DNA from: Escherichia coli
GTDB lineage: Bacteria > Pseudomonadota > Gammaproteobacteria > Enterobacterales > Enterobacteriaceae
Length of the DNA: 57,148 bases
Assembly: GCF_003334255.1 (NCBI RefSeq)
Contig: NZ_QOWU01000032.1
Direction: 5' to 3' (one strand)
In this document: one piece after another, positions 23,491-36,386 of the stretch
Numbering within the stretch: position 1 is the stretch's first letter
Layout: each line of letters starts with the position of its first letter
Program-made: the position numbers and the translations under genes
Notes under the pieces: model-generated
What the model was told of the DNA's origin: nothing
The model's input: the letters and a program-made list of their open reading frames with translations, nothing else
Databases searched by the model: none

Positions 23491-25770
23491 ATGGATGACC
23501 AGTTAAAACAAAGTGCACTTGATTTCCATGAATTTCCAGTTCCAGGGAAAATCCAGGTTTCTCCAACCAAGCCTCTGGCAACACAGCGCGATCTGGCGCT
23601 GGCCTACTCACCAGGCGTTGCCGCACCTTGTCTTGAAATCGAAAAAGACCCGTTAAAAGCCTACAAATATACCGCCCGCGGTAACCTGGTGGCGGTGATC
23701 TCTAACGGTACGGCGGTGCTGGGGTTAGGCAACATTGGCGCGCTGGCAGGCAAACCGGTGATGGAAGGCAAGGGCGTTCTGTTTAAGAAATTCGCCGGGA
23801 TTGATGTATTTGACATTGAAGTTGACGAACTCGACCCGGACAAATTTATTGAAGTTGTCGCCGCGCTCGAACCAACCTTCGGCGGCATCAACCTCGAAGA
23901 CATTAAAGCGCCAGAATGTTTCTATATTGAACAGAAACTGCGCGAGCGGATGAATATTCCGGTATTCCACGACGATCAGCACGGCACGGCAATTATCAGC
24001 ACTGCCGCCATCCTCAACGGCTTGCGCGTGGTGGAGAAAAACATCTCCGACGTGCGGATGGTGGTTTCCGGCGCGGGTGCCGCAGCAATCGCCTGTATGA
24101 ACCTGCTGGTAGCGCTGGGTCTGCAAAAACATAACATCGTGGTTTGCGATTCAAAAGGCGTTATCTATCAGGGCCGTGAGCCAAACATGGCGGAAACCAA
24201 AGCCGCATATGCGGTGGTGGATGACGGCAAACGTACCCTCGATGATGTGATTGAAGGCGCGGATATTTTCCTGGGCTGTTCCGGCCCGAAAGTGCTGACC
24301 CAGGAAATGGTGAAGAAAATGGCTCGTGCGCCAATGATCCTGGCGCTGGCGAACCCGGAACCGGAAATTCTGCCGCCGCTGGCGAAAGAAGTGCGTCCGG
24401 ATGCCATCATTTGCACCGGTCGTTCTGACTATCCGAACCAGGTGAACAACGTCCTGTGCTTCCCGTTCATCTTCCGTGGCGCGCTGGACGTTGGCGCAAC
24501 CGCCATCAACGAAGAGATGAAACTGGCGGCGGTACGTGCGATTGCAGAACTCGCCCATGCGGAACAGAGCGAAGTGGTGGCTTCAGCGTATGGCGATCAG
24601 GATCTGAGCTTTGGTCCGGAATACATCATTCCAAAACCGTTTGATCCGCGCTTGATCGTTAAGATCGCTCCTGCGGTCGCTAAAGCCGCGATGGAGTCGG
24701 GCGTGGCGACTCGTCCGATTGCTGATTTCGACGTCTACATCGACAAGCTGACTGAGTTCGTTTACAAAACCAACCTGTTTATGAAGCCGATTTTCTCCCA
24801 GGCTCGCAAAGCGCCGAAGCGCGTTGTTCTGCCGGAAGGGGAAGAGGCGCGCGTTCTGCATGCCACTCAGGAACTGGTAACGCTGGGACTGGCGAAACCG
24901 ATCCTTATCGGTCGTCCGAACGTGATCGAAATGCGCATTCAGAAACTGGGCTTGCAGATCAAAGCGGGCGTTGATTTTGAGATCGTCAATAACGAATCCG
25001 ATCCGCGCTTTAAAGAGTACTGGACCGAATACTTCCAGATCATGAAGCGTCGCGGCGTCACTCAGGAACAGGCGCAGCGGGCGCTGATCAGTAACCCGAC
25101 AGTGATCGGCGCGATCATGGTTCAGCGTGGGGAAGCCGATGCAATGATTTGCGGTACGGTGGGTGATTATCATGAACATTTTAGCGTGGTGAAAAATGTC
25201 TTTGGTTATCGCGATGGCGTTCACACCGCAGGTGCCATGAACGCGCTGCTGCTGCCGAGTGGTAACACCTTTATTGCCGATACATATGTTAATGATGAAC
25301 CGGATGCAGAAGAGCTGGCGGAGATCACCTTGATGGCGGCAGAAACTGTCCGTCGTTTTGGTATTGAGCCGCGCGTTGCTTTGTTGTCGCACTCCAACTT
25401 TGGTTCTTCTGACTGCCCGTCGTCGAGCAAAATGCGTCAGGCGCTGGAACTGGTCAGGGAACGTGCACCAGAACTGATGATTGATGGTGAAATGCACGGC
25501 GATGCAGCGCTGGTGGAAGCGATTCGCAACGACCGTATGCCGGACAGCTCTTTGAAAGGTTCCGCCAATATTCTGGTGATGCCGAACATGGAAGCTGCCC
25601 GCATTAGTTACAACTTACTGCGTGTTTCCAGCTCGGAAGGTGTGACTGTCGGCCCGGTGCTGATGGGTGTGGCGAAACCGGTTCACGTGTTAACGCCGAT
25701 CGCATCGGTGCGTCGTATCGTCAACATGGTGGCGCTGGCCGTGGTAGAAGCGCAAACCCAACCGCTGTAA
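23491..25770 (+). CDS. maeB: NADP-dependent malic enzyme (malic enzyme fused to a PTA-like domain)
   Basis: 759-aa translation [44 protein letters not shown]... matches MaeB. Confidence 0.95.
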
Positions 25771-26061
25771 TTTTTTTTAACTCTCACGCTTACCCTGAAT
25801 ATTCAGGGTAAGCAGTTTAGCTGCAATATATTAGTAAAGCTTATTACTGAGTTTGCGAATAATAAAAAAAGCAGTCTATATAATATCTCGATATTATTTT
25901 ATTTATATTCATGCGTTGCATATGAAAGTTTATGCACCACAGCGAATATCTCTCCATTCTTAGTGATCTACCTCACCTTTTAAACGCGCTTGCCGAATTT
26001 TGTTATTTACTCTGACGAAAAATTGTCACGATACACGAAAGTTTTTCACAGGCGGCGACTC

Positions 26062-26397
26062 ATGGATAAAGAACGCATCATTCAGGAATTTGTGCCCGGC
26101 AAACAGGTCACACTGGCGCATCTCATCGCGCATCCCGGTGAGGAACTGGCGAAGAAAATCGGCGTTCCGGATGCGGGCGCAATTGGCATTATGACGCTAA
26201 CTCCCGGCGAAACGGCGATGATCGCCGGTGATTTAGCGCTGAAAGCCGCTGATGTGCATATCGGTTTTCTCGACCGATTCAGCGGTGCATTGGTGATTTA
26301 TGGCTCGGTGGGCGCAGTAGAAGAAGCGTTATCACAAACCGTCAGCGGTTTAGGTCGCTTATTAAATTATACGCTTTGTGAAATGACCAAAAGTTAA
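26062..26397 (+). CDS. eutS: Ethanolamine utilisation microcompartment shell protein EutS
   Basis: 111-aa translation [46 protein letters not shown]... of BMC-domain type; first gene of the eut operon. ORF-track start at 25990 is an extension. Confidence 0.9.
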
Positions 26398-26409
26398 TAC
26401 GAGGCATTC

Positions 26410-26889
26410 ATGAAACGAATTGCGTTTGTGGGTAGCGTCGGGGCAGGAAAAACAACGTTATTTAATGCGTTGCAGGGGAATTATACCCTCGCCAGAAAAA
26501 CACAGGCCGTGGAATTTAATGATAAGGGCGATATTGATACGCCGGGTGAATATTTTAACCATCCCCGCTGGTATCACGCCTTAATTACCACGCTACAGGA
26601 TGTAGACATGCTGATCTATGTCCATGGCGCAAATGACCCGGAAAGTCGGTTGCCTGCCGGGTTGCTGGATATTGGCGTCAGCAAACGGCAAATCGCCGTC
26701 ATCAGTAAAACGGACATGCCAGATGCTGACGTCGCCGCAACGCGAAAGTTATTGCTTGAGACGGGTTTCGAAGAGCCGATTTTCGAGCTAAACAGCCACG
26801 ACCCGCAAAGCGTGCAGCAACTGGTGGATTATCTGGCATCTCTCACCAAACAGGAGGAAGCAGGTGAAAAAACTCATCACAGCGAATGA
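26410..26889 (+). CDS. eutP: Ethanolamine utilisation protein EutP (P-loop GTPase-like)
   Basis: 159-aa translation MKRIAFVGSVGAGKTTLFNALQG... with a Walker A motif; matches EutP. Confidence 0.9.
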   Translation: MKRIAFVGSVGAGKTTLFNALQGNYTLARKTQAVEFNDKGDIDTPGEYFNHPRWYHALITTLQDVDMLIYVHGANDPESRLPAGLLDIGVSKRQIAVISKTDMPDADVAATRKLLLETGFEEPIFELNSHDPQSVQQLVDYLASLTKQEEAGEKTHHSE

Positions 26890-27565
26890 TATTCGTGAAG
26901 CACACGCGCGCGGCGAACAGGCAATGTCCGTGGTTCTGCGCGCCAGCATTATTACCCCGGAAGCCCGTGAAGTGGCGGATCTACTGGGTTTTACCATCAC
27001 CGAATGTGATGAATCGATCCCGGTAACGGCGTCCGTGCCCGCCAGCGTGCCAGCCGACAAAACCGAAAGCCAGCGCATCCGCGAAACCATCATTGCCCAG
27101 CTGCCGGAAGGCCAGTTTACCGAAAGCCTGGTCGCACAGCTGATGGAAAAAGTGATGAAGGAAAAACAGTCGCTGGAGCAGGGCGCAATGCAGCCGAGCT
27201 TCAAATCGGTGACCGGCAAAGGCGGCATCAAAGTGATTGATGGCAGTAGCGTCAAGTTTGGTCGTTTCGACGGCGCAGAGCCGCATTGCGTGGGCTTGAC
27301 TGATCTTGTGACCGGAGACGACGGCAGCAGCATGGCCGCCGGTTTTATGCAGTGGGAGAACGCATTCTTCCCGTGGACCCTGAACTACGACGAAATCGAC
27401 ATGGTGCTGGAAGGGGAGCTGCATGTTCGCCACGAAGGCCAAACCATGATCGCCAAAGCAGGCGACGTGATGTTTATCCCGAAAGGCTCCAGCATCGAAT
27501 TTGGTACGACATCCAGCGTGAAATTCCTGTATGTCGCCTGGCCGGCTAACTGGCAATCCCTATGA
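26864..27565 (+). CDS. eutQ: Ethanolamine utilisation protein EutQ (cupin-type)
   Basis: 233-aa translation MKKLITANDIREAHARGEQAMSVVLRASIITPEAREVADLLGF...; overlaps the eutP 3' end by 26 nt. Confidence 0.9.
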   Translation: MKKLITANDIREAHARGEQAMSVVLRASIITPEAREVADLLGFTITECDESIPVTASVPASVPADKTESQRIRETIIAQLPEGQFTESLVAQLMEKVMKEKQSLEQGAMQPSFKSVTGKGGIKVIDGSSVKFGRFDGAEPHCVGLTDLVTGDDGSSMAAGFMQWENAFFPWTLNYDEIDMVLEGELHVRHEGQTMIAKAGDVMFIPKGSSIEFGTTSSVKFLYVAWPANWQSL

Positions 27566-28365
27566 AAGATTTCATCACCGAAGCATGGCTAAGAGCGAAC
27601 CATACGCTCAGCGAAGGCGCAGAGATCCATCTCCCTGCGGACAGTCGCCTGACGCCCTCTGCCCGGGAGTTGCTGGAAAGCCGCCATCTGCGCATCAAGT
27701 TTATTGACGAGCAGGGCCGCCTGTTTGTTGACGATGAACAGCAGCAGCCGCAGCCCGTTCATGGGCTGACCAGTAGCGATGAACATCCGCAGGCGTGCTG
27801 CGAACTGTGTCGCCAGCCGGTGGCAAAAAAGCCGGATACGCTGACTCACCTGTCGGCGGAAAAAATGGTCGCCAAAAGCGATCCGCGTCTGGGTTTTCGC
27901 GCGGTTCTCGACAGCACCATTGCGCTGGCAGTGTGGCTGCAAATTGAACTGGCGGAACCGTGGCAGCCGTGGCTGGCGGATATCCGTTCGCGTCTTGGCA
28001 ACATTATGCGCGCCGATGCGCTGGGGGAACCGCTGGGCTGCCAGGCGATTGTCGGGCTTTCTGACGAAGATCTGCATCGGCTTTCTCATCAGCCGCTGCG
28101 CTATCTCGACCACGATCATCTGGTGCCGGAAGCCAGCCACGGGCGCGATGCTGCGTTGCTCAATCTGCTACGCACCAAAGTGCGGGAAACCGAAACCGTA
28201 GCGGCGCAGGTCTTTATCACCCGCAGCTTTGAAGTATTACGCCCGGACATTTTGCAGGCGCTGAACCGCCTTTCGAGCACGGTCTACGTGATGATGATCC
28301 TGAGCGTAACGAAGCAGCCGCTAACGGTGAAGCAGATCCAACAACGACTGGGGGAAACGCAATGA
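27562..28365 (+). CDS. eutT: Ethanolamine utilisation cob(I)alamin adenosyltransferase EutT
   Basis: 267-aa translation [43 protein letters not shown]... with a Cys-rich motif ([12 protein letters not shown]); 4-nt overlap with eutQ. Confidence 0.9.
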
Positions 28366-29378
28366 TTATTGAACGTTGTCGTGAACTGGCGTTGCGAGCG
28401 CCCGCCAGAGTGGTTTTTCCGGATGCGTTAGACCAACGTGTGCTGAAAGCCGCGCAATATTTACATCAACAAGGTCTGGCAACGCCCATTCTGGTCGCCA
28501 ATCCGTTTGAACTTCGTCAGTTTGCGCTCAGTCACGGCGTGGCGATGGACGGGCTACAGGTGATTGATCCGCATGGCAACCTCGCAATGCGGGAAGAATT
28601 TGCTCATCGCTGGCTGGCCCGCGCGGGCGAAAAAACGCCGCCGGATGCGCTGGAAAAACTTACCGACCCTCTGATGTTCGCCGCAGCAATGGTCAGCGCC
28701 GGTAAAGCGGATGTCTGTATCGCGGGCAACCTCTCTTCCACGGCAAATGTGCTGCGTGCCGGATTACGCATTATCGGCTTGCAGCCAGGCTGTAAAACGC
28801 TCTCTTCCATTTTCCTGATGTTGCCACAGTACAGCGGCCCGGCGTTGGGCTTTGCCGATTGCAGCGTGGTGCCACAGCCGACGGCGGCGCAGCTGGCGGA
28901 TATCGCGCTTGCCAGTGCCGAAACCTGGCGCGCCATCACCGGAGAAGAGCCGCGCGTGGCGATGCTGTCGTTTTCCAGCAATGGTAGCGCCCGTCACCCC
29001 TGTGTTGCTAACGTCCAGCAGGCGACAGAAATCGTCCGTGAGCGCGCACCAAAGCTGGTGGTGGATGGCGAGTTACAGTTTGACGCCGCCTTCGTGCCGG
29101 AAGTGGCGGCGCAAAAAGCGCCTGCCAGCCCGCTACAGGGCAAGGCCAATGTGATGGTTTTTCCGTCGCTGGAAGCCGGAAATATTGGTTACAAAATCGC
29201 ACAACGACTCGGCGGATATCGTGCCGTCGGGCCACTGATACAAGGACTTGCCGCGCCGATGCACGATCTCTCTCGTGGTTGTAGCGTGCAGGAAATTATC
29301 GAGCTGGCGCTGGTGGCAGCTGTGCCGCGTCAGACAGAAGTGAACCGCGAAAGCAGTTTACAAACACTGGTTGAATGA
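28362..29378 (+). CDS. eutD: Phosphotransacetylase EutD
   Basis: 338-aa translation [48 protein letters not shown]... of PTA family; 4-nt overlap with eutT. Confidence 0.9.
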
Positions 29379-29416
29379 ACGGTCCCGTTCTGGACCCTGA
29401 TAAAGAGGAAAGCACA

Positions 29417-29710
29417 ATGGAAGCATTAGGAATGATCGAAACCCGGGGCCTGGTTGCACTGATTGAGGCTTCTGACGCGATGGTGAAAGCTGCGCGCGTC
29501 AAGCTGGTTGGTGTTAAGCAGATTGGCGGCGGCCTGTGTACTGCCATGGTTCGTGGTGATGTTGCAGCCTGTAAAGCCGCGACCGATGCAGGTGCCGCAG
29601 CGGCACAGCGTATCGGCGAGCTGGTATCTGTACACGTTATCCCGCGTCCGCACGGCGACCTGGAAGAAGTCTTCCCGATCGGCCTGAAAGGCGATAGCAG
29701 CAACCTGTAA
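29417..29710 (+). CDS. eutM: Ethanolamine utilisation microcompartment shell protein EutM
   Basis: 97-aa translation [55 protein letters not shown]..., canonical BMC hexamer; AGAGGA RBS upstream. ORF-track start at 29375 is an extension. Confidence 0.92.
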
Positions 29711-29816
29711 TCACCCTGTGTGACGTCGATTCGGGCGTCACGCTCTCTCCTTTTTCATTTTACCTTCTGCGGAGGGTAGGGGGAGCTTTTACCTGAAATA
29801 CGCCACGGAGGCGGGT

Positions 29817-30104
29817 ATGAAACTGGCAGTCGTCACTGGACAAATTGTTTGTACCGTACGCCATCACGGACTGGCGCATGACAAATTGCTGATGGTGGAA
29901 ATGATTGATCCACAAGGTAATCCTGACGGGCAATGCGCCGTCGCCATCGACAATATTGGCGCGGGAACCGGGGAGTGGGTGTTACTGGTGAGTGGCAGTT
30001 CCGCCCGCCAGGCGCATAAAAGCGAAACGTCACCGGTCGATCTGTGCGTGATTGGCATTGTCGATGAGGTGGTGTCTGGCGGTCAGGTAATTTTCCACAA
30101 ATAA
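29817..30104 (+). CDS. eutN: Microcompartment vertex protein EutN
   Basis: 95-aa translation MKLAVVTGQIVCTVRHHGLAHDKLLMVEMIDPQGNPDGQCAVAIDNIGAG..., EutN/CcmL family. Confidence 0.9.
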   Translation: MKLAVVTGQIVCTVRHHGLAHDKLLMVEMIDPQGNPDGQCAVAIDNIGAGTGEWVLLVSGSSARQAHKSETSPVDLCVIGIVDEVVSGGQVIFHK

Positions 30105-30115
30105 GGCAGAACATC

Positions 30116-31519
30116 ATGAATCAACAGGATATTGAACAGGTGGTGAAAGCGGTACTGCTGAAAATGCAAAGCAGTGACACGCCGTCCGCCGCCGTTCATG
30201 AGATGGGCGTTTTCGCGTCCCTGGATGACGCCGTTGCGGCAGCCAAAGTCGCCCAGCAAGGGTTAAAAAGCGTGGCAATGCGCCAGTTAGCCATTGCTGC
30301 CATTCGTGAAGCAGGCGAAAAACACGCCAGAGATTTAGCGGAACTTGCCGTCAGTGAAACCGGCATGGGGCGCGTTGAAGATAAATTTGCAAAAAACGTC
30401 GCTCAGGCGCGCGGCACACCAGGCGTTGAGTGCCTCTCTCCGCAAGTGCTGACTGGCGACAACGGCCTGACCCTAATTGAAAACGCACCCTGGGGCGTGG
30501 TGGCTTCGGTGACGCCTTCCACTAACCCGGCGGCAACCGTAATTAACAACGCCATCAGCCTGATTGCCGCGGGCAACAGCGTCATTTTTGCCCCGCATCC
30601 GGCGGCGAAAAAAGTCTCCCAGCGGGCGATTACGCTGCTCAACCAGGCGATTGTTGCCGCAGGTGGGCCGGAAAACTTACTGGTTACTGTGGCAAATCCG
30701 GATATCGAAACCGCGCAACGCTTGTTCAAGTTTCCGGGTATCGGCCTGCTGGTGGTAACCGGCGGCGAAGCGGTAGTAGAAGCGGCGCGTAAACACACCA
30801 ATAAACGTCTGATTGCCGCAGGCGCTGGCAACCCGCCGGTAGTGGTGGATGAAACCGCCGACCTCGCCCGTGCCGCTCAGTCCATCGTCAAAGGCGCTTC
30901 TTTCGATAACAACATCATTTGTGCCGACGAAAAGGTACTGATTGTTGTTGATAGCGTAGCCGATGAACTGATGCGTCTGATGGAAGGCCAGCACGCGGTG
31001 AAACTGACCGCAGAACAGGCGCAGCAGCTGCAACCGGTGTTGCTGAAAAATATCGACGAGCGCGGAAAAGGCACCGTCAGCCGTGACTGGGTTGGTCGCG
31101 ACGCAGGCAAAATCGCGGCGGCAATCGGCCTTAAAGTTCCGCAAGAAACGCGCCTGCTGTTTGTGGAAACCACCGCAGAACATCCGTTTGCCGTGACTGA
31201 ACTGATGATGCCGGTGTTGCCCGTCGTGCGCGTCGCCAACGTGGCGGATGCCATTGCGCTAGCGGTGAAACTGGAAGGCGGTTGCCACCACACGGCGGCA
31301 ATGCACTCGCGCAACATCGAAAACATGAACCAGATGGCGAATGCTATTGATACCAGCATTTTCGTTAAGAACGGACCGTGCATTGCCGGGCTGGGGCTGG
31401 GCGGGGAAGGCTGGACCACCATGACCATCACCACGCCAACCGGTGAAGGGGTAACCAGCGCGCGTACGTTTGTCCGTCTGCGTCGCTGTGTATTAGTCGA
31501 TGCGTTTCGCATTGTTTAA
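30116..31519 (+). CDS. eutE: Acetaldehyde dehydrogenase (acetylating) EutE
   Basis: 467-aa translation MNQQDIEQVVKAVLLKMQSSDTPSAAVHEMGVFASLDDAVAAAKVAQQG..., aldehyde dehydrogenase family with an N-terminal encapsulation-like helix. Confidence 0.92.
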   Translation: MNQQDIEQVVKAVLLKMQSSDTPSAAVHEMGVFASLDDAVAAAKVAQQGLKSVAMRQLAIAAIREAGEKHARDLAELAVSETGMGRVEDKFAKNVAQARGTPGVECLSPQVLTGDNGLTLIENAPWGVVASVTPSTNPAATVINNAISLIAAGNSVIFAPHPAAKKVSQRAITLLNQAIVAAGGPENLLVTVANPDIETAQRLFKFPGIGLLVVTGGEAVVEAARKHTNKRLIAAGAGNPPVVVDETADLARAAQSIVKGASFDNNIICADEKVLIVVDSVADELMRLMEGQHAVKLTAEQAQQLQPVLLKNIDERGKGTVSRDWVGRDAGKIAAAIGLKVPQETRLLFVETTAEHPFAVTELMMPVLPVVRVANVADAIALAVKLEGGCHHTAAMHSRNIENMNQMANAIDTSIFVKNGPCIAGLGLGGEGWTTMTITTPTGEGVTSARTFVRLRRCVLVDAFRIV

Positions 31520-31529
31520 GGAGTAACAG

Positions 31530-32366
31530 ATGGCGCACGACGAACAATGGCTCACCCCACGTCTGCAAACGGCGGCAACGCTGTGTAACCAGACGCCCGC
31601 CGCGACGGAATCTCCGCTGTGGCTGGGGGTGGATCTGGGCACCTGCGATGTGGTGTCGATGGTTGTCGACCGCGACGGTCAGCCAGTGGCGGTATGCCTC
31701 GACTGGGCCGATGTGGTTCGCGACGGCATCGTCTGGGATTTCTTCGGCGCTGTCACCATTGTTCGTCGCCATCTCGACACGCTCGAGCAGCAATTCGGTC
31801 GTCGTTTTAGCCATGCGGCGACTTCATTTCCTCCAGGTACGGACCCGCGTATTTCCATCAACGTGCTGGAATCTGCCGGACTGGAAGTGAGCCATGTGCT
31901 GGATGAGCCAACCGCAGTTGCGGATCTGCTGCAACTGGACAACGCCGGTGTAGTGGATATCGGCGGCGGCACTACCGGCATTGCCATCGTGAAAAAGGGC
32001 AAGGTGACGTACTCGGCGGATGAAGCCACCGGCGGACATCACATCTCTCTGACTCTCGCCGGAAATCGCCGTATTTCGCTGGAAGAGGCGGAGCAGTACA
32101 AGCGCGGTCACGGTGAAGAGATTTGGCCTGCGGTGAAACCGGTGTACGAAAAAATGGCGGACATTGTCGCCCGGCATATTGAAGGGCAGGGCATTACTGA
32201 TTTATGGCTGGCGGGCGGCTCTTGTATGCAACCGGGCGTGGCGGAACTGTTTCGCAAACAATTCCCGGCGTTACAGGTGCATTTACCGCAGCACAGTTTG
32301 TTTATGACCCCGCTGGCGATCGCCAGTAGTGGGCGAGAGAAAGCGGAGGGGCTATATGCAAAATGA
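31530..32366 (+). CDS. eutJ: Ethanolamine utilisation chaperonin-like protein EutJ
   Basis: 278-aa translation MAHDEQWLTPRLQTAATLCNQTPAATESPLWLGVDLGTCDVVSMVVD..., actin/Hsp70-like ATPase fold. Confidence 0.9.
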   Translation: MAHDEQWLTPRLQTAATLCNQTPAATESPLWLGVDLGTCDVVSMVVDRDGQPVAVCLDWADVVRDGIVWDFFGAVTIVRRHLDTLEQQFGRRFSHAATSFPPGTDPRISINVLESAGLEVSHVLDEPTAVADLLQLDNAGVVDIGGGTTGIAIVKKGKVTYSADEATGGHHISLTLAGNRRISLEEAEQYKRGHGEEIWPAVKPVYEKMADIVARHIEGQGITDLWLAGGSCMQPGVAELFRKQFPALQVHLPQHSLFMTPLAIASSGREKAEGLYAK

Positions 32367-33543
32367 ATTGCAGACCGCGCTCTTTCAGGCGTTCGATACC
32401 CTGAATCTGCAACGGGTAAAAACATTTAGCGTTCCACCGGTGACGCTTTGCGGTCCGGGCTCGGTGAGCAGTTGCGGACAGCAAGCGCAAACGCGTGGGC
32501 TGAAACATCTGTTCGTGATGGCAGACAGCTTTTTGCATCAGGCAGGGATGACCGCCGGGCTGACGCGTAGCCTGACCGTTAAAGGTATCGCCATGACGCT
32601 CTGGCCATGTCCGGTGGGCGAACCGTGCATTACCGACGTGTGTGCAGCCGTGGCGCAGTTGCGTGAGTCAGGCTGTGATGGGGTGATCGCGTTTGGCGGC
32701 GGCTCGGTGCTGGATGCGGCGAAAGCCGTGACGTTGCTGGTGACGAACCCGGATAGCACGCTGGCAGAGATGTCAGAAACCAGCGTTCTGCAACCGCGCT
32801 TGCCGCTGATTGCCATTCCAACTACCGCCGGAACCGGCTCTGAAACCACCAATGTAACGGTGATTATCGACGCGGTGAGCGGGCGCAAGCAGGTGTTAGC
32901 CCATGCCTCGCTGATGCCGGATGTGGCGATCCTCGACGCCGCATTGACCGAAGGTGTGCCGTCGCATGTCACGGCGATGACCGGCATTGATGCGTTAACC
33001 CATGCCATTGAAGCATACAGCGCCCTGAACGCTACACCGTTTACCGACAGTCTGGCGATTGGTGCCATTGCGATGATTGGCAAATCGCTGCCGAAAGCGG
33101 TGGGCTACGGTCACGACCTTGCCGCGCGCGAGAGCATGTTGCTGGCTTCATGTATGGCGGGAATGGCGTTTTCCAGTGCGGGTCTTGGGTTGTGCCACGC
33201 GATGGCGCATCAGCCGGGCGCGGCGCTGCATATTCCGCACGGTCTCGCGAACGCCATGTTGCTGCCAACGGTGATGGAATTTAACCGGATGGTTTGTCGT
33301 GAACGCTTTAGTCAGATTGGTCGGGCACTGCGAACTAAAAAATCCGACGATCGTGACGCTATTAACGCGGTAAGTGAGCTGATTGCGGAAGTTGGGATTG
33401 GTAAACGACTGGGCGATGTTGGTGCGACATCTGCGCATTACGGCGCATGGGCGCAGGCCGCGCTGGAAGATATTTGTCTGCGCAGTAACCCGCGTACCGC
33501 CAGCCTGGAGCAGATTGTCGGCCTGTACGCAGCGGCGCAATAA
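32356..33543 (+). CDS. eutG: Ethanolamine utilisation alcohol dehydrogenase EutG
   Basis: 395-aa translation MQNELQTALFQAFDTLNLQRVKTFSVPPVTLCGPGSVSSCGQQAQ..., iron-containing ADH family; overlaps eutJ by 11 nt. ORF-track start at 32329 is an extension. Confidence 0.9.
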   Translation: MQNELQTALFQAFDTLNLQRVKTFSVPPVTLCGPGSVSSCGQQAQTRGLKHLFVMADSFLHQAGMTAGLTRSLTVKGIAMTLWPCPVGEPCITDVCAAVAQLRESGCDGVIAFGGGSVLDAAKAVTLLVTNPDSTLAEMSETSVLQPRLPLIAIPTTAGTGSETTNVTVIIDAVSGRKQVLAHASLMPDVAILDAALTEGVPSHVTAMTGIDALTHAIEAYSALNATPFTDSLAIGAIAMIGKSLPKAVGYGHDLAARESMLLASCMAGMAFSSAGLGLCHAMAHQPGAALHIPHGLANAMLLPTVMEFNRMVCRERFSQIGRALRTKKSDDRDAINAVSELIAEVGIGKRLGDVGATSAHYGAWAQAALEDICLRSNPRTASLEQIVGLYAAAQ

Positions 33544-33545
33544 AT

Positions 33546-33729
<184 letters not shown>

Positions 33730-33759
33730 ATAAATAACAACTAACAGGGAGTAAAGGCG

Positions 33760-34986
33760 ATGGGAATTAACGAAATCATCATGTACATCATGATGTTCTT
33801 TATGCTGATAGCTGCCGTAGACAGGATCCTGTCGCAGTTCGGCGGTTCTGCTCGTTTCCTCGGTAAGTTCGGTAAAAGTATCGAAGGATCAGGCGGTCAG
33901 TTCGAAGAAGGCTTTATGGCAATGGGCGCACTGGGCCTGGCGATGGTCGGTATGACCGCGCTGGCACCGGTACTGGCTCACGTTCTCGGGCCGGTAATTA
34001 TTCCGGTTTACGAAATGCTCGGCGCTAACCCATCGATGTTCGCCGGAACACTGCTGGCGTGCGATATGGGCGGCTTCTTCCTCGCCAAAGAGCTGGCGGG
34101 CGGCGACGTAGCCGCGTGGCTATACTCTGGGTTAATTCTCGGGTCGATGATGGGGCCAACGATTGTGTTTTCCATTCCGGTGGCGCTCGGCATTATCGAA
34201 CCTTCTGACCGTCGTTATCTGGCGCTCGGCGTGCTGGCGGGCATTGTGACCATTCCGATTGGTTGTATCGCTGGTGGTCTGGTTGCTATGTACTCCGGTG
34301 TGCAGATCAACGGCCAGCCGGTGGAATTCACTTTCGCCCTGATCCTGATGAACATGATCCCGGTGATCATTGTTGCGATTCTGGTGGCGCTGGGGCTGAA
34401 ATTCATCCCGGAAAAAATGATCAACGGCTTCCAGATCTTCGCCAAATTCCTCGTTGCATTGATCACCCTCGGTCTTGCCGCTGCGGTAGTGAAATTCCTG
34501 CTTGGCTGGGAACTGATCCCCGGTCTGGATCCTATCTTTATGGCCCCTGGCGATAAACCCGGTGAGGTGATGCGCGCCATTGAAGTTATCGGTTCTATCT
34601 CCTGCGTTCTGTTAGGGGCGTATCCGATGGTGCTGCTGCTGACTCGCTGGTTTGAAAAACCGCTGATGAGCGTCGGTAAAGTACTGAATATGAACAACAT
34701 CGCGGCAGCCGGCATGGTGGCAACGCTTGCCAACAACATCCCGATGTTCGGCATGATGAAGCAGATGGATACCCGCGGCAAAGTCATCAACTGCGCCTTC
34801 GCCGTTTCCGCTGCTTTCGCCCTGGGCGACCACTTAGGCTTCGCCGCTGCCAACATGAACGCCATGATCTTCCCGATGATTGTCGGCAAGTTGATCGGCG
34901 GCGTAACGGCGATTGGCGTGGCGATGATGCTGGTGCCAAAAGAAGACGCGACCGCGACTAAAACCGAAGCGGAGGCACAATCGTGA
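33760..34986 (+). CDS. eutH: Ethanolamine permease EutH
   Basis: 408-aa highly hydrophobic multi-pass membrane protein (MGINEIIMYIMMFFMLIAAVDRILSQFGG...); matches EutH. Confidence 0.92.
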   Translation: MGINEIIMYIMMFFMLIAAVDRILSQFGGSARFLGKFGKSIEGSGGQFEEGFMAMGALGLAMVGMTALAPVLAHVLGPVIIPVYEMLGANPSMFAGTLLACDMGGFFLAKELAGGDVAAWLYSGLILGSMMGPTIVFSIPVALGIIEPSDRRYLALGVLAGIVTIPIGCIAGGLVAMYSGVQINGQPVEFTFALILMNMIPVIIVAILVALGLKFIPEKMINGFQIFAKFLVALITLGLAAAVVKFLLGWELIPGLDPIFMAPGDKPGEVMRAIEVIGSISCVLLGAYPMVLLLTRWFEKPLMSVGKVLNMNNIAAAGMVATLANNIPMFGMMKQMDTRGKVINCAFAVSAAFALGDHLGFAAANMNAMIFPMIVGKLIGGVTAIGVAMMLVPKEDATATKTEAEAQS

Positions 34987-36386
34987 ACACTCGCCAGCTA
35001 TTGAGCGTCGGTATCGATATCGGCACCACCACCACCCAGGTGATTTTCTCCCGGCTGGAGCTGGTTAACCGTGCGGCGGTGTCGCAGGTGCCGCGCTACG
35101 AATTCATTAAACGCGAAATTAGCTGGCAAAGTCCGGTGTTCTTTACCCCTGTCGATAAACAGGGCGGTTTAAAAGAAGCGGAACTGAAAACCTTAATACT
35201 CGAGCAATATCATGCTGCGGGTATTGAGCCGGAAAGCGTTGATTCTGGTGCCATCATCATCACCGGTGAAAGCGCGAAAACCCGCAATGCTCGCCCGGCG
35301 GTGATGGCGCTCTCTCAGTCGCTGGGCGATTTTGTCGTTGCCAGCGCCGGGCCGCACCTCGAATCCGTGATCGCCGGTCACGGAGCCGGGGCACAAACCC
35401 TTTCTGAACAACGGCTGTGTCGGGTACTGAATATCGACATCGGCGGTGGCACCGCGAACTACGCCCTGTTCGATGCCGGAAAAATCAGCGGCACTGCCTG
35501 CCTCAACGTCGGTGGTCGCCTGCTGGAAACCGACAGCCACGGGCGCGTGGTTTACGCTCATAAACCGGGGCAGATGATTGTGGATGAGTGCTTCGGTGCA
35601 GGCACCGACGCCCGTTCGCTGACCGGCGCGCAGCTGGTGCAGGTGACCCGGCGGATGGCAGAACTGATTGTCGAAGTGATTGACGGAACGCTCTCACCGC
35701 TCGCGCAGGCATTGATGCAAACCGGTTTGCTGCCCGCAGGTGTTACGCCCGAAATCATTACGCTTTCTGGCGGCGTGGGCGAATGTTATCGCCACCAGCC
35801 CGCCTACCCGTTCTGTTTTGCCGATATTGGCCCGCTGCTGGCAACTGCGCTGCATGATCATCCGCGCCTGCGTGAGATGAACGTACAGTTTCCGGCGCAA
35901 ACCGTGCGCGCCACGGTGATTGGCGCGGGCGCGCATACCCTTTCGCTCTCTGGCAGCACAATCTGGCTTGAGGGCGTACAACTGCCGCTGCGCAATTTGC
36001 CGGTGGCGATCCCGATTGATGAAACGGATCTGGTGGGGGCCTGGCAACAGGCGCTGATTCAGCTGGATCTTGATCCCAAAACTGACGCGTACGTGCTGGC
36101 GCTTCCCGCCTCGCTGCCTGTGCGTTACGCCGCGGTACTGACGGTCATCAACGCGTTGGTCGATTTCGTCGCGCGTTTTCCGAATCCGCATCCCCTGCTG
36201 GTGGTGGCCGGGCAGGACTTTGGTAAAGCTCTGGGCATGTTGTTGCGCCCACAGCTACAACAACTCCCGTTGGCAGTCATTGACGAAGTGATTGTCCGCG
36301 CGGGGGACTATATCGACATTGGTACGCCTCTTTTTGGCGGATCGGTTGTGCCGGTGACGGTGAAATCACTCGCATTTCCTTCCTGA
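34983..36386 (+). CDS. eutA: Ethanolamine ammonia-lyase reactivase EutA
   Basis: 467-aa translation MNTRQLLSVGIDIGTTTTQVIFSRLELVNRAAVSQVPRYEF...; 4-nt overlap with eutH. eutB follows directly, with no intervening prophage. Confidence 0.92.
   Translation: MNTRQLLSVGIDIGTTTTQVIFSRLELVNRAAVSQVPRYEFIKREISWQSPVFFTPVDKQGGLKEAELKTLILEQYHAAGIEPESVDSGAIIITGESAKTRNARPAVMALSQSLGDFVVASAGPHLESVIAGHGAGAQTLSEQRLCRVLNIDIGGGTANYALFDAGKISGTACLNVGGRLLETDSHGRVVYAHKPGQMIVDECFGAGTDARSLTGAQLVQVTRRMAELIVEVIDGTLSPLAQALMQTGLLPAGVTPEIITLSGGVGECYRHQPAYPFCFADIGPLLATALHDHPRLREMNVQFPAQTVRATVIGAGAHTLSLSGSTIWLEGVQLPLRNLPVAIPIDETDLVGAWQQALIQLDLDPKTDAYVLALPASLPVRYAAVLTVINALVDFVARFPNPHPLLVVAGQDFGKALGMLLRPQLQQLPLAVIDEVIVRAGDYIDIGTPLFGGSVVPVTVKSLAFPS

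Follow-up and report, generated by a model that had tools for sequence, protein, structure and literature searches.

The eutM–eutN spacer of Escherichia coli contains an undescribed, conserved, bipartite intercistronic RNA structure, whose functional class, operon punctuation, is familiar and calls for no new mechanism. We analysed 57,148 nucleotides of E. coli DNA (contig NZ_QOWU01000032.1 of assembly GCF_003334255.1; hereafter the window), whose + strand carries the 17-gene eut operon, and focused on the 106-nt spacer between eutM and eutN, in which RefSeq annotates nothing. Covariation, strong purifying selection and replacement at the same site by repetitive extragenic palindromic (REP) sequences or bacterial interspersed mosaic elements (BIMEs) support, across the sequences compared, a functional RNA rather than a chance palindrome. 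Our leading, still tentative reading is that the spacer is an intercistronic stem-loop module that protects the 3' end of the eutM message, with at most leaky or weak termination. The eutM–eutN region was present at ≥95% identity in 5,409 of 5,426 complete E. coli genomes, and the K-12 spacer is identical to that of the window.

An initial annotation of the window had flagged a stem TGTGACG/CGTCACG with a 10-nt loop, 8 nt after the eutM stop. This hairpin (HP1) is real but was under-called: its stem has 10 bp (arms GUGUGACGUC/GGCGUCACGC, with six G-C and two G-U pairs), its loop has 6 nt, and it starts 7 nt past the stop. As judged from orthologous sequences, it is only the first half of a larger conserved element comprising HP1, a second, composite hairpin (HP2) and a conserved box. 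The spacer length given in that annotation (106 nt, with eutM ending at 29710 and eutN starting at 29817) was correct, as was the pyrimidine-rich tract after HP1 (TCTCTCCTTTTTCATTTT), which runs without a G up to 29768. The free energy of HP1 is -16.2 kcal/mol, with a pair probability of ~1.0 in all sequence contexts folded, and HP1 and HP2 sum to -34.3 kcal/mol directly 3' of eutM. The outer helix of HP2 is less certain, with a probability of ~0.2 in long-context folds. The 9-nt U-rich internal loop of HP2 (unpaired probability 0.94–1.0 at 29752–29759 and 0.5 at 29760) and the box at 29787–29799 were predicted to be single-stranded, and both are plausible, putative endonuclease entry sites. 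The box was identical to E. coli at 9–13 of 13 positions among aligned spacers with the same architecture, and it could be the U-tract of HP2, a single-stranded site of the RNase E type or a weak anti-Shine-Dalgarno sequence.

To place the element across genera, we assembled a comparison set of 48 eutN loci from species-representative genomes plus 9 found via EutN homologues. The enterobacterial eutM–eutN spacers were of two kinds, type A with HP1 and type B with REP/BIME sequences, and no enterobacterial spacer examined was without a stable hairpin. Type A spacers, in which HP1 is followed by a CU strand, an inner hairpin and a GA strand and lastly by the box UUUUACCUGAA, occurred in Escherichia, the Citrobacter freundii complex, Citrobacter sp. 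R56/NCU1, Klebsiella spallanzanii, Phytobacter, Buttiauxella, Entomohabitans and Pluralibacter gergoviae-like genomes, while Yokenella and a metagenomic relative (locus L057) had HP1 only, in spacers of 50–52 nt. In type B spacers, REP/BIME palindromes (GCCGGATGGCG...CTTATCCGGCCTAC) occupied the same place without HP1, beginning within a few nucleotides of the eutM stop; this type was found in Salmonella, Klebsiella, C. koseri, C. amalonaticus, C. sedlakii, Pseudocitrobacter and a Pluralibacter metagenome-assembled genome (MAG; L021). The REP consensus (GCCGGATG...CTTATCCGGCCTAC) and the effect of REPs lying ≤15 nt from a stop codon are summarised in PMC12306157. Such repeated swapping of a unique hairpin for REP/BIME sequences at one orthologous site is a natural experiment, relevant to the question of whether REPs function as stem-loops or are carried along neutrally. 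Long eutM–eutN spacers (131–211 nt) were also seen in Pseudomonas nitroreducens (L041), a Rhodocyclaceae MAG (L044) and Pseudothauera (L045); they are G+C-rich and predicted to be highly structured, with sequences unrelated to the enterobacterial element.

We then compared the element with chance expectation. Hairpins of at least 10 bp numbered ~12 per shuffled 57-kb window on both strands, which gives ~0.01 expected per 106-nt spacer, and the fold of 29705–29825, whose minimum free energy (MFE) structure holds both HP1 and HP2, had a z-score of -2.4 against shuffles. Terminator-like patterns were not enriched in the operon (16 observed vs 14.0 ± 3.6 in shuffles), so the significance of HP1 rests on conservation. 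HP1 was found 4–9 nt past the eutM stop in 18/18 non-REP spacers examined, with a stem of 8–12 bp and a loop of 4–20 nt when each orthologue was folded alone. It appeared in the independent MFE structure of every non-REP orthologue, and HP2 in that of most full-length ones; RNAalifold returned HP1 and the outer and inner helices of HP2 without the E. coli fold as reference. In a MAFFT alignment of 21 type A spacers, 89.7% of cells paired, compared with 43–58% in slid-partner controls, and 11 of 25 pairs showed double changes, values reached by 0 of 500 shuffles. Once the P. gergoviae-type sequences were included, HP1 by itself showed double changes in 6 of 12 pairs (CG/UG/UA, AU to GC and CG to UA). 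The inner helix of HP2 was fully paired while its sequence differed by lineage (ACCUUC/GAGGGU, GUUCUC/GAGAGC, GCCCUC/GAGGGC, GCCGCC/GGCGGC and GCUGCC/GGCGGU). When the P. gergoviae-type spacers were left out of the seed, a covariance model still recovered them (two at E = 3e-5, the others at 0.01 and 0.06) together with Yokenella (E = 0.0075), and it found exactly one site in the window. The covariance-model alignment misplaced the CU strand of the P. gergoviae-type spacers, and HP2 was checked there by hand.

Conservation was concentrated in the arms of HP1, which were identical to E. coli at 15–16 of 16 positions across genera, compared with 45–66% identity at 4-fold degenerate sites of eutM and eutN, 0–30% in the HP1 loop and 0–86% in the stretch before HP1. 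Among the E. coli variants sampled, polymorphisms lay at loop positions 29730, 29758 and 29768 or broke single pairs of the HP2 outer helix (29750, in O157:H7, and 29783), and none fell in the HP1 arms. In these comparisons, the constancy of the arm sequence goes beyond the needs of pairing. The coordinates of the element and its flanking genes are collected in Table 1.

Table 1. Features of the eutM–eutN junction (positions in the window).
Feature	Position	Strand	Description
eutM coding sequence	29417..29710	+	97 aa, major hexameric shell protein; TAA at 29708-29710; from the open reading frame table and the RefSeq annotation of the identical sequence
HP1 hairpin	29718..29743	+	10-bp stem 29718-29727 / 29734-29743; loop GAUUCG 29728-29733
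G-free pyrimidine tract UCUCUCCUUUUUCAUUU	29744..29760	+	29745-29751, 5' strand of HP2 outer helix; 29752-29760, U-rich internal loop
HP2 composite hairpin	29745..29785	+	MFE -16.8 kcal/mol; also predicted by RNAalifold
HP2 outer helix CUCUCCU/GGGGGAG	29745-29751 / 29779-29785	+	
HP2 inner helix UACCUUC/GAGGGUA	29761-29767 / 29772-29778	+	apical loop UGCG 29768-29771
Conserved box UUUUACCUGAAAU	29787..29799	+	directly 3' of HP2; near-invariant (UUUUACCUGAA)
eutN Shine-Dalgarno sequence and start codon	29807..29819	+	GGAGG 29807-29811; ATG 29817-29819
eutN coding sequence	29817..30104	+	95 aa, pentameric vertex protein

To assess expression across the junction, we used published RNA and protein data. 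The sole per-gene RNA values found were those of a table for the adherent-invasive E. coli strain LF82, in reads per kilobase per million mapped reads (RPKM; PMC6379400). The basal and bile values were, respectively, 13 and 83 for eutT, 108 and 357 for eutD, 55 and 177 for eutM, 5 and 62 for eutN, 14 and 149 for eutE, 13 and 147 for eutJ, 35 and 168 for eutG, and 106 and 514 for eutH. These values have a local maximum over eutD and eutM, whose 3' border is the eutM–eutN spacer, with a step at the junction of 4- to 11-fold in the basal and 1.2- to 2.9-fold in the induced condition (PMC6379400). The initial annotation had proposed higher expression of the upstream eutSPQTDM segment than of the downstream enzymes; the fall from eutM to eutN agrees with this, but the elevated segment comprises eutD–eutM only. 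In induced K-12, intensity-based absolute quantification (iBAQ) relative to EutQ = 100 (PMC11334477) gave 96 for EutM, 39 for EutL, 37 for EutB, 27 for EutE, 24 for EutC, 10 for EutD and 1 for EutN. EutM was thus the most abundant shell protein, EutN stood at ~1% of EutM, and EutE, EutB, EutC and EutL reached 24–39% of the maximum (PMC11334477). For Salmonella, a passage of PMC12487888 that cites Kroeger 2013 reports shell genes above cargo genes in expression. Neither the public MG1655 Term-seq tables, searched for a sense-strand 3' end at the spacer, nor the TERMITe supplements contained a 3' end here; the operon is off in those media, and published Term-seq is therefore uninformative at this site.

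According to the reading that we favour, HP1, HP2 and the A/U-rich single-stranded box would punctuate the polycistronic eut mRNA just past the gene of the most-needed product. HP1 would fold immediately upon transcription, and HP1 and HP2 together would form a stable 3' structure impassable to 3'-to-5' exonucleases (polynucleotide phosphorylase and RNase II). Following a cut in the downstream single-stranded U/A-rich stretches, or occasional termination, RNA ending with eutM would outlive the distal RNA, by which the eutM message would be enriched over eutN, and the structured 106-nt gap would keep eutN translation independent of the dense flow of ribosomes along eutM. For the eut spacer, we infer that exonucleases are blocked, where the RNA is cut and how large the effect is. 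We favour a barrier because REP/BIME sequences, which are stem-loops without U-tracts that protect upstream mRNA, replace the element independently, and because the short spacers keep HP1 alone. As in a decay barrier, a stable stem-loop lies inside a polycistronic mRNA, downstream of the cistron with the higher expression, and its structure is kept by covariation or swapped for another stable stem-loop. Several observations weigh against this reading. The pyrimidine/U tail that follows HP1 in most lineages is not needed by a pure exonuclease barrier, and REPs accumulate in many permissive spacers, so that their presence here could be neutral. Protein levels in the operon follow predicted accessibility of the ribosome-binding site (RBS), and RNA-level partitioning may therefore contribute little. 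In an enterohaemorrhagic E. coli array, induction was high from eutS through eutN and low from eutE on, which places the drop after eutN and not after eutM. The bile-induced RNA increments were level across the junction (eutM +122, eutE +135; PMC6379400), and level induced increments beside a large basal step are not predicted by a barrier of fixed efficiency.

Three known systems resemble the proposed protective module. In the Rhodobacter capsulatus puf operon, stable hairpins likewise lie right after the genes of the most abundant structural subunits within a polycistronic mRNA. Belasco, Cohen and Klug (1985–1988) reportedly described an 'mRNA decay terminator' between pufA and pufL, whose hairpins are considered to block 3'-to-5' decay so that the proximal RNA persists longer than the distal part and determines the stoichiometry. 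Neither the sequence nor the organism is related to the eut case, and the half-life gap and its hairpin dependence were measured for puf, whereas those of eut are predicted and its RNA step, seen in one data set, is modest. REP/BIME elements, as in malE-malF and hisJ-hisQ, share with the eut element the eutM–eutN site itself in other genera, the stem-loop nature and a proposed protective or attenuating role; for malE-malF, Newbury and Higgins (1987) are said to have described REPs as mRNA-protecting stem-loops without U-tracts. HP1 and HP2 differ from them in departing from the REP consensus, being single-copy and having their own bipartite architecture with the ACCUGAA box. In papB-papA, too, a major structural subunit is encoded on a stabler mRNA species bounded by a 3' stem-loop, but according to what Baga and Uhlin (1988) reportedly found, the stabilised pap RNA is generated by an RNase E cut upstream of papA and has a genuine terminator at its end, while the cleavage site in eut is putative. 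The stoichiometry itself gives the site its interest: microcompartment shells need unequal parts, with thousands of EutM hexamer subunits and only ~60 EutN subunits, and a conserved RNA element situated right at the EutM/EutN boundary is a natural candidate for setting this ratio, easily tested by mutation. It also bears on engineering, as the eutSMNLK genes used for synthetic Eut shells have usually been re-spaced, with the spacer dropped.

The leading alternative, which we consider possible but doubtful, is that the spacer holds one or more leaky intrinsic (Rho-independent) terminators, formed by HP1 with the pyrimidine tract and/or by the outer helix of HP2 with the C-UUUU-A that follows it in E. 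coli (29786–29791); a fraction of RNA polymerases would be released, fewer transcripts would reach eutN and beyond, and 3'-end protection would be a side effect. HP1 has the G+C-rich stem (~5–14 bp) and short loop of such terminators and ranks first among terminator-like sites in 12 kb of the operon (10 pairs, 6 G-C). Its tail UCUCUCCUUUUU passes a permissive rule (≥5 T in an 8-nt window starting 0–2 nt past the stem), although only 4 of its first 8 nt are U (1–6 of 8 in orthologues). Canonical terminators typically carry 6–8 U directly 3' of the stem, of which those closest to it matter most. Tails of HP1 had 7–8 pyrimidines of 8 in 13/18 spacers and 3–6 U in 15/18, and a U/pyrimidine tail was kept despite a different downstream architecture in Buttiauxella (CUUCUUUU), P. 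gergoviae (CGUUUUUA), L056 (GUUUUACC) and L057 (CUCAUUUU). UUUU follows HP2 in Escherichia, Citrobacter, K. spallanzanii, Phytobacter and P. gergoviae, with U7 in L053, and HP2 plus UUUU (29745–29790) is no less terminator-like than HP1. These tails keep a leaky terminator in contention, and the fall of LF82 RNA from eutM to eutN (PMC6379400) would fit it. However, the 8 nt after HP1 in E. coli (UCUCUCCU) include 4 U, contribute four rC:dG pairs to the hybrid and place no U-run beside the stem, Yokenella and L051 are without any U-tract, the REP/BIME substitutes of Salmonella and Klebsiella are not intrinsic terminators, and the stop lies only 7 nt from the stem, where a terminating ribosome coupled to RNA polymerase would be expected to hinder the hairpin. 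Termination efficiency must be low because the downstream proteins (EutE, B, C and L) are abundant and the induced RNA increments are flat across the junction, and a strong terminator is excluded. Of the 'partial terminator or stabiliser' first suggested, a functional stem-loop at the junction thus stands, but not a canonical terminator, given the tail, nor an efficient one. Protection and leaky termination commonly coexist. Like the rplL-rpoB attenuator, an intra-operon attenuating intrinsic terminator, and the gltI-gltJ spacer, which yields SroC, the eut spacer places a G+C-rich stem with a pyrimidine/U tail between higher- and lower-expressed genes where read-through is required; it differs in that its U-tract is interrupted by C, termination is hypothetical and two orthologues lack the U-tract.

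A role in eutN translation, whether secondary to or in rivalry with protection of the eutM message, is unlikely in our estimate. The structured spacer would stop eutM ribosomes from re-initiating and hold EutN at ~1% of EutM, and pyrimidine-rich strands (the CU strand, the ACCU box or eutM codons at 29641–29650) would occlude the strong eutN Shine-Dalgarno (SD) sequence. The iBAQ values of EutN, EutM and EutE show a far bigger drop than any RNA step; the 100-fold EutM:EutN protein gap must be mostly translational, but iBAQ is imprecise for a 95-aa protein. The predicted opening energy of the eutN RBS (14.8 kcal/mol) is among the highest of the first eight genes (eutM 6.2, eutE 8.4), yet those of eutD and eutG are similar. 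The eutN SD was predicted to be paired in most orthologues with differing partners: Escherichia and the C. freundii group use the eutM I-P-R-P codons, the P. gergoviae type the CU strand and Buttiauxella the spacer itself; in the RNAalifold consensus, CCU of the box pairs with AGG of the SD. Against this, the partners are not conserved and a G+C-rich sequence usually finds some partner, HP1 takes no part in any SD pairing and is yet the most conserved piece, and the short spacers of Yokenella and L057 keep HP1 only. Less probable again is a discrete, sequence-specifically recognised cis-regulatory RNA (invariant GUGACG/CGUCAC arms, HP2 and ACCUGAA box) rather than a passive barrier; it would sense or set shell stoichiometry by protein binding, by switching of the CU strand between HP2 and the eutN SD, or by release of a small RNA (sRNA), and a candidate binder is EutK, whose C-terminal domain binds nucleic acid. 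Lower still we place a specific ligand site or released RNA, namely a protein bound to HP1 or an ~80-nt eutM 3'-derived sRNA (HP1-HP2-UUUU) with a CU-rich seed. The HP1 arms are nearly invariant across genera though compensatory change would be allowed, and the layout, in which a U-rich single strand accompanies two hairpins and a stem with UUUU closes the segment, resembles that of Hfq sRNAs derived from 3' ends, for example SroC of the gltI-gltJ spacer. But an Rfam cmscan of 28500–31000 on both strands gave no match even at E ≤ 10, literature searches found no paper tying eutM to an sRNA and no description of an intergenic hairpin, internal promoter or sRNA at eutM–eutN, local folds lock the CU strand into HP2, and the REP-type genera do without the HP1-HP2 element. 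That the spacer has no function of its own, as a neutral palindrome or mobile-element relic, is scarcely credible and already disfavoured: terminator-like patterns are no commoner than in shuffles and IS911 has inserted into the spacer of one natural strain, which tolerates it, but the element is single-copy per genome in 5,408/5,426 E. coli genomes, the HP1 arms exceed 4-fold sites by far in conservation while loops vary freely, and both hairpins show compensatory changes.

Several further identities of the element were tried and rejected. The spacer is not a repeat family, because it is single-copy per genome, and it is not itself a REP/BIME: blastn with 11-nt words placed it at a median of 1 site per genome in 5,408 E. 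coli genomes, and it is without the GCCGGATG/CTTATCCGGCCTAC motif, whereas true REPs occur in the same window in the eutG–eutH spacer. A substrate of the ANTAR protein EutV was considered, as Firmicute eut operons contain terminators controlled by EutV/ANTAR (reviewed in PMC5821096). The likeness lies in RNA hairpins within a eut operon that modulate read-through; the difference is that paired hexaloops and EutV/EutW are needed there, whereas Enterobacteria use EutR and the HP1 loop is not conserved. ANTAR substrates are two adjacent hexaloop hairpins with A at position 1 and G at position 4, overlapping a terminator, while HP1 loops are 4–20 nt of unrelated sequence and the HP2 loop is a tetraloop. 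A CRP site (TGTGA-N6-TCACA) was rejected, as TGTGA (29719–29723) and TCAC (29738–29741) lie 14 bp apart and their spacing varies widely between genera. A read-through extension of the EutM C-terminus would end at TAG 29777–29779, and there is no conserved reading frame in the spacer, because the lengths of 105, 106, 110, 114, 120 and 121 nt differ by non-multiples of three. Pairing of the HP1 5' arm with eutN codons 5–7 (GUCGUCAC) was discarded, since these codons are equally conserved in REP-type genera without HP1.

Long-range pairing of the eutN SD with eutM 29641–29650 was likewise rejected as a conserved feature, being strong in E. coli but not kept across lineages. As an observation in its own right, the SD region CGGAGGCGGG (29806–29815) pairs with the I-P-R-P codons CCCGCGUCCG (29641–29650) with a probability of ~1 in folds of 300–500 nt, and besides Escherichia the C. 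freundii group also shows the pairing, as do K. spallanzanii and some REP-type loci, whereas Buttiauxella and the P. gergoviae type lack it; where it forms in these models, it could act as a translational-coupling clamp. A low-scoring antisense 3' end in the Term-seq data of Adams et al. 2021 lies opposite eutM at K-12 2572217 (+); when reverse-complemented, its 61-nt sequence matches window positions 29640–29700 exactly (~29640, minus strand), and the corresponding RNA would start in or cross the spacer. In E. coli strain 90-1, a natural isolate, an IS911 copy (L064 1700–2980; about window position 29789) sits between HP2 and the ACCUGAA box and cuts off eutN and all distal genes from the operon promoter.

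Elsewhere in the operon, the initial annotation was wrong to call it 'otherwise overlapping', as gaps of 216 nt (eutG–eutH, in this window), 38 nt (eutD–eutM) and 45 nt (eutK–eutR) occur. The eutG–eutH spacer (33544–33759), the longest of the operon, contains two tandem copies of a REP pair (BIME), whereas strain PapM-36-2 has a single copy within 116 nt. A sigma70 promoter scan of the eutM–eutN spacer found none on either strand, and TGAAAT (29794–29799) has no -35 partner by eye. Only two + strand sigma70-like matches were found in 24000–36000, a total below shuffle expectation; the one nearest to the spacer lies inside eutN (29878–29905, + strand; ATGACA-16-AATGAT, 9/12) and, judged by its motif, could feed eutE-distal transcription. 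The LF82 RNA values rise 4- to 8-fold from eutT (27562–28365) to eutD (28362–29378), from 13 to 108 and from 83 to 357 RPKM, which points to an internal start or a site of processing, so far unannotated, upstream of eutD that would set the 5' side of the eutD–eutM segment. RNA also rises from eutG to eutH, from 35 to 106 RPKM in the basal state and from 168 to 514 RPKM under bile, which may reflect an internal start or a stabilised 5' end there.

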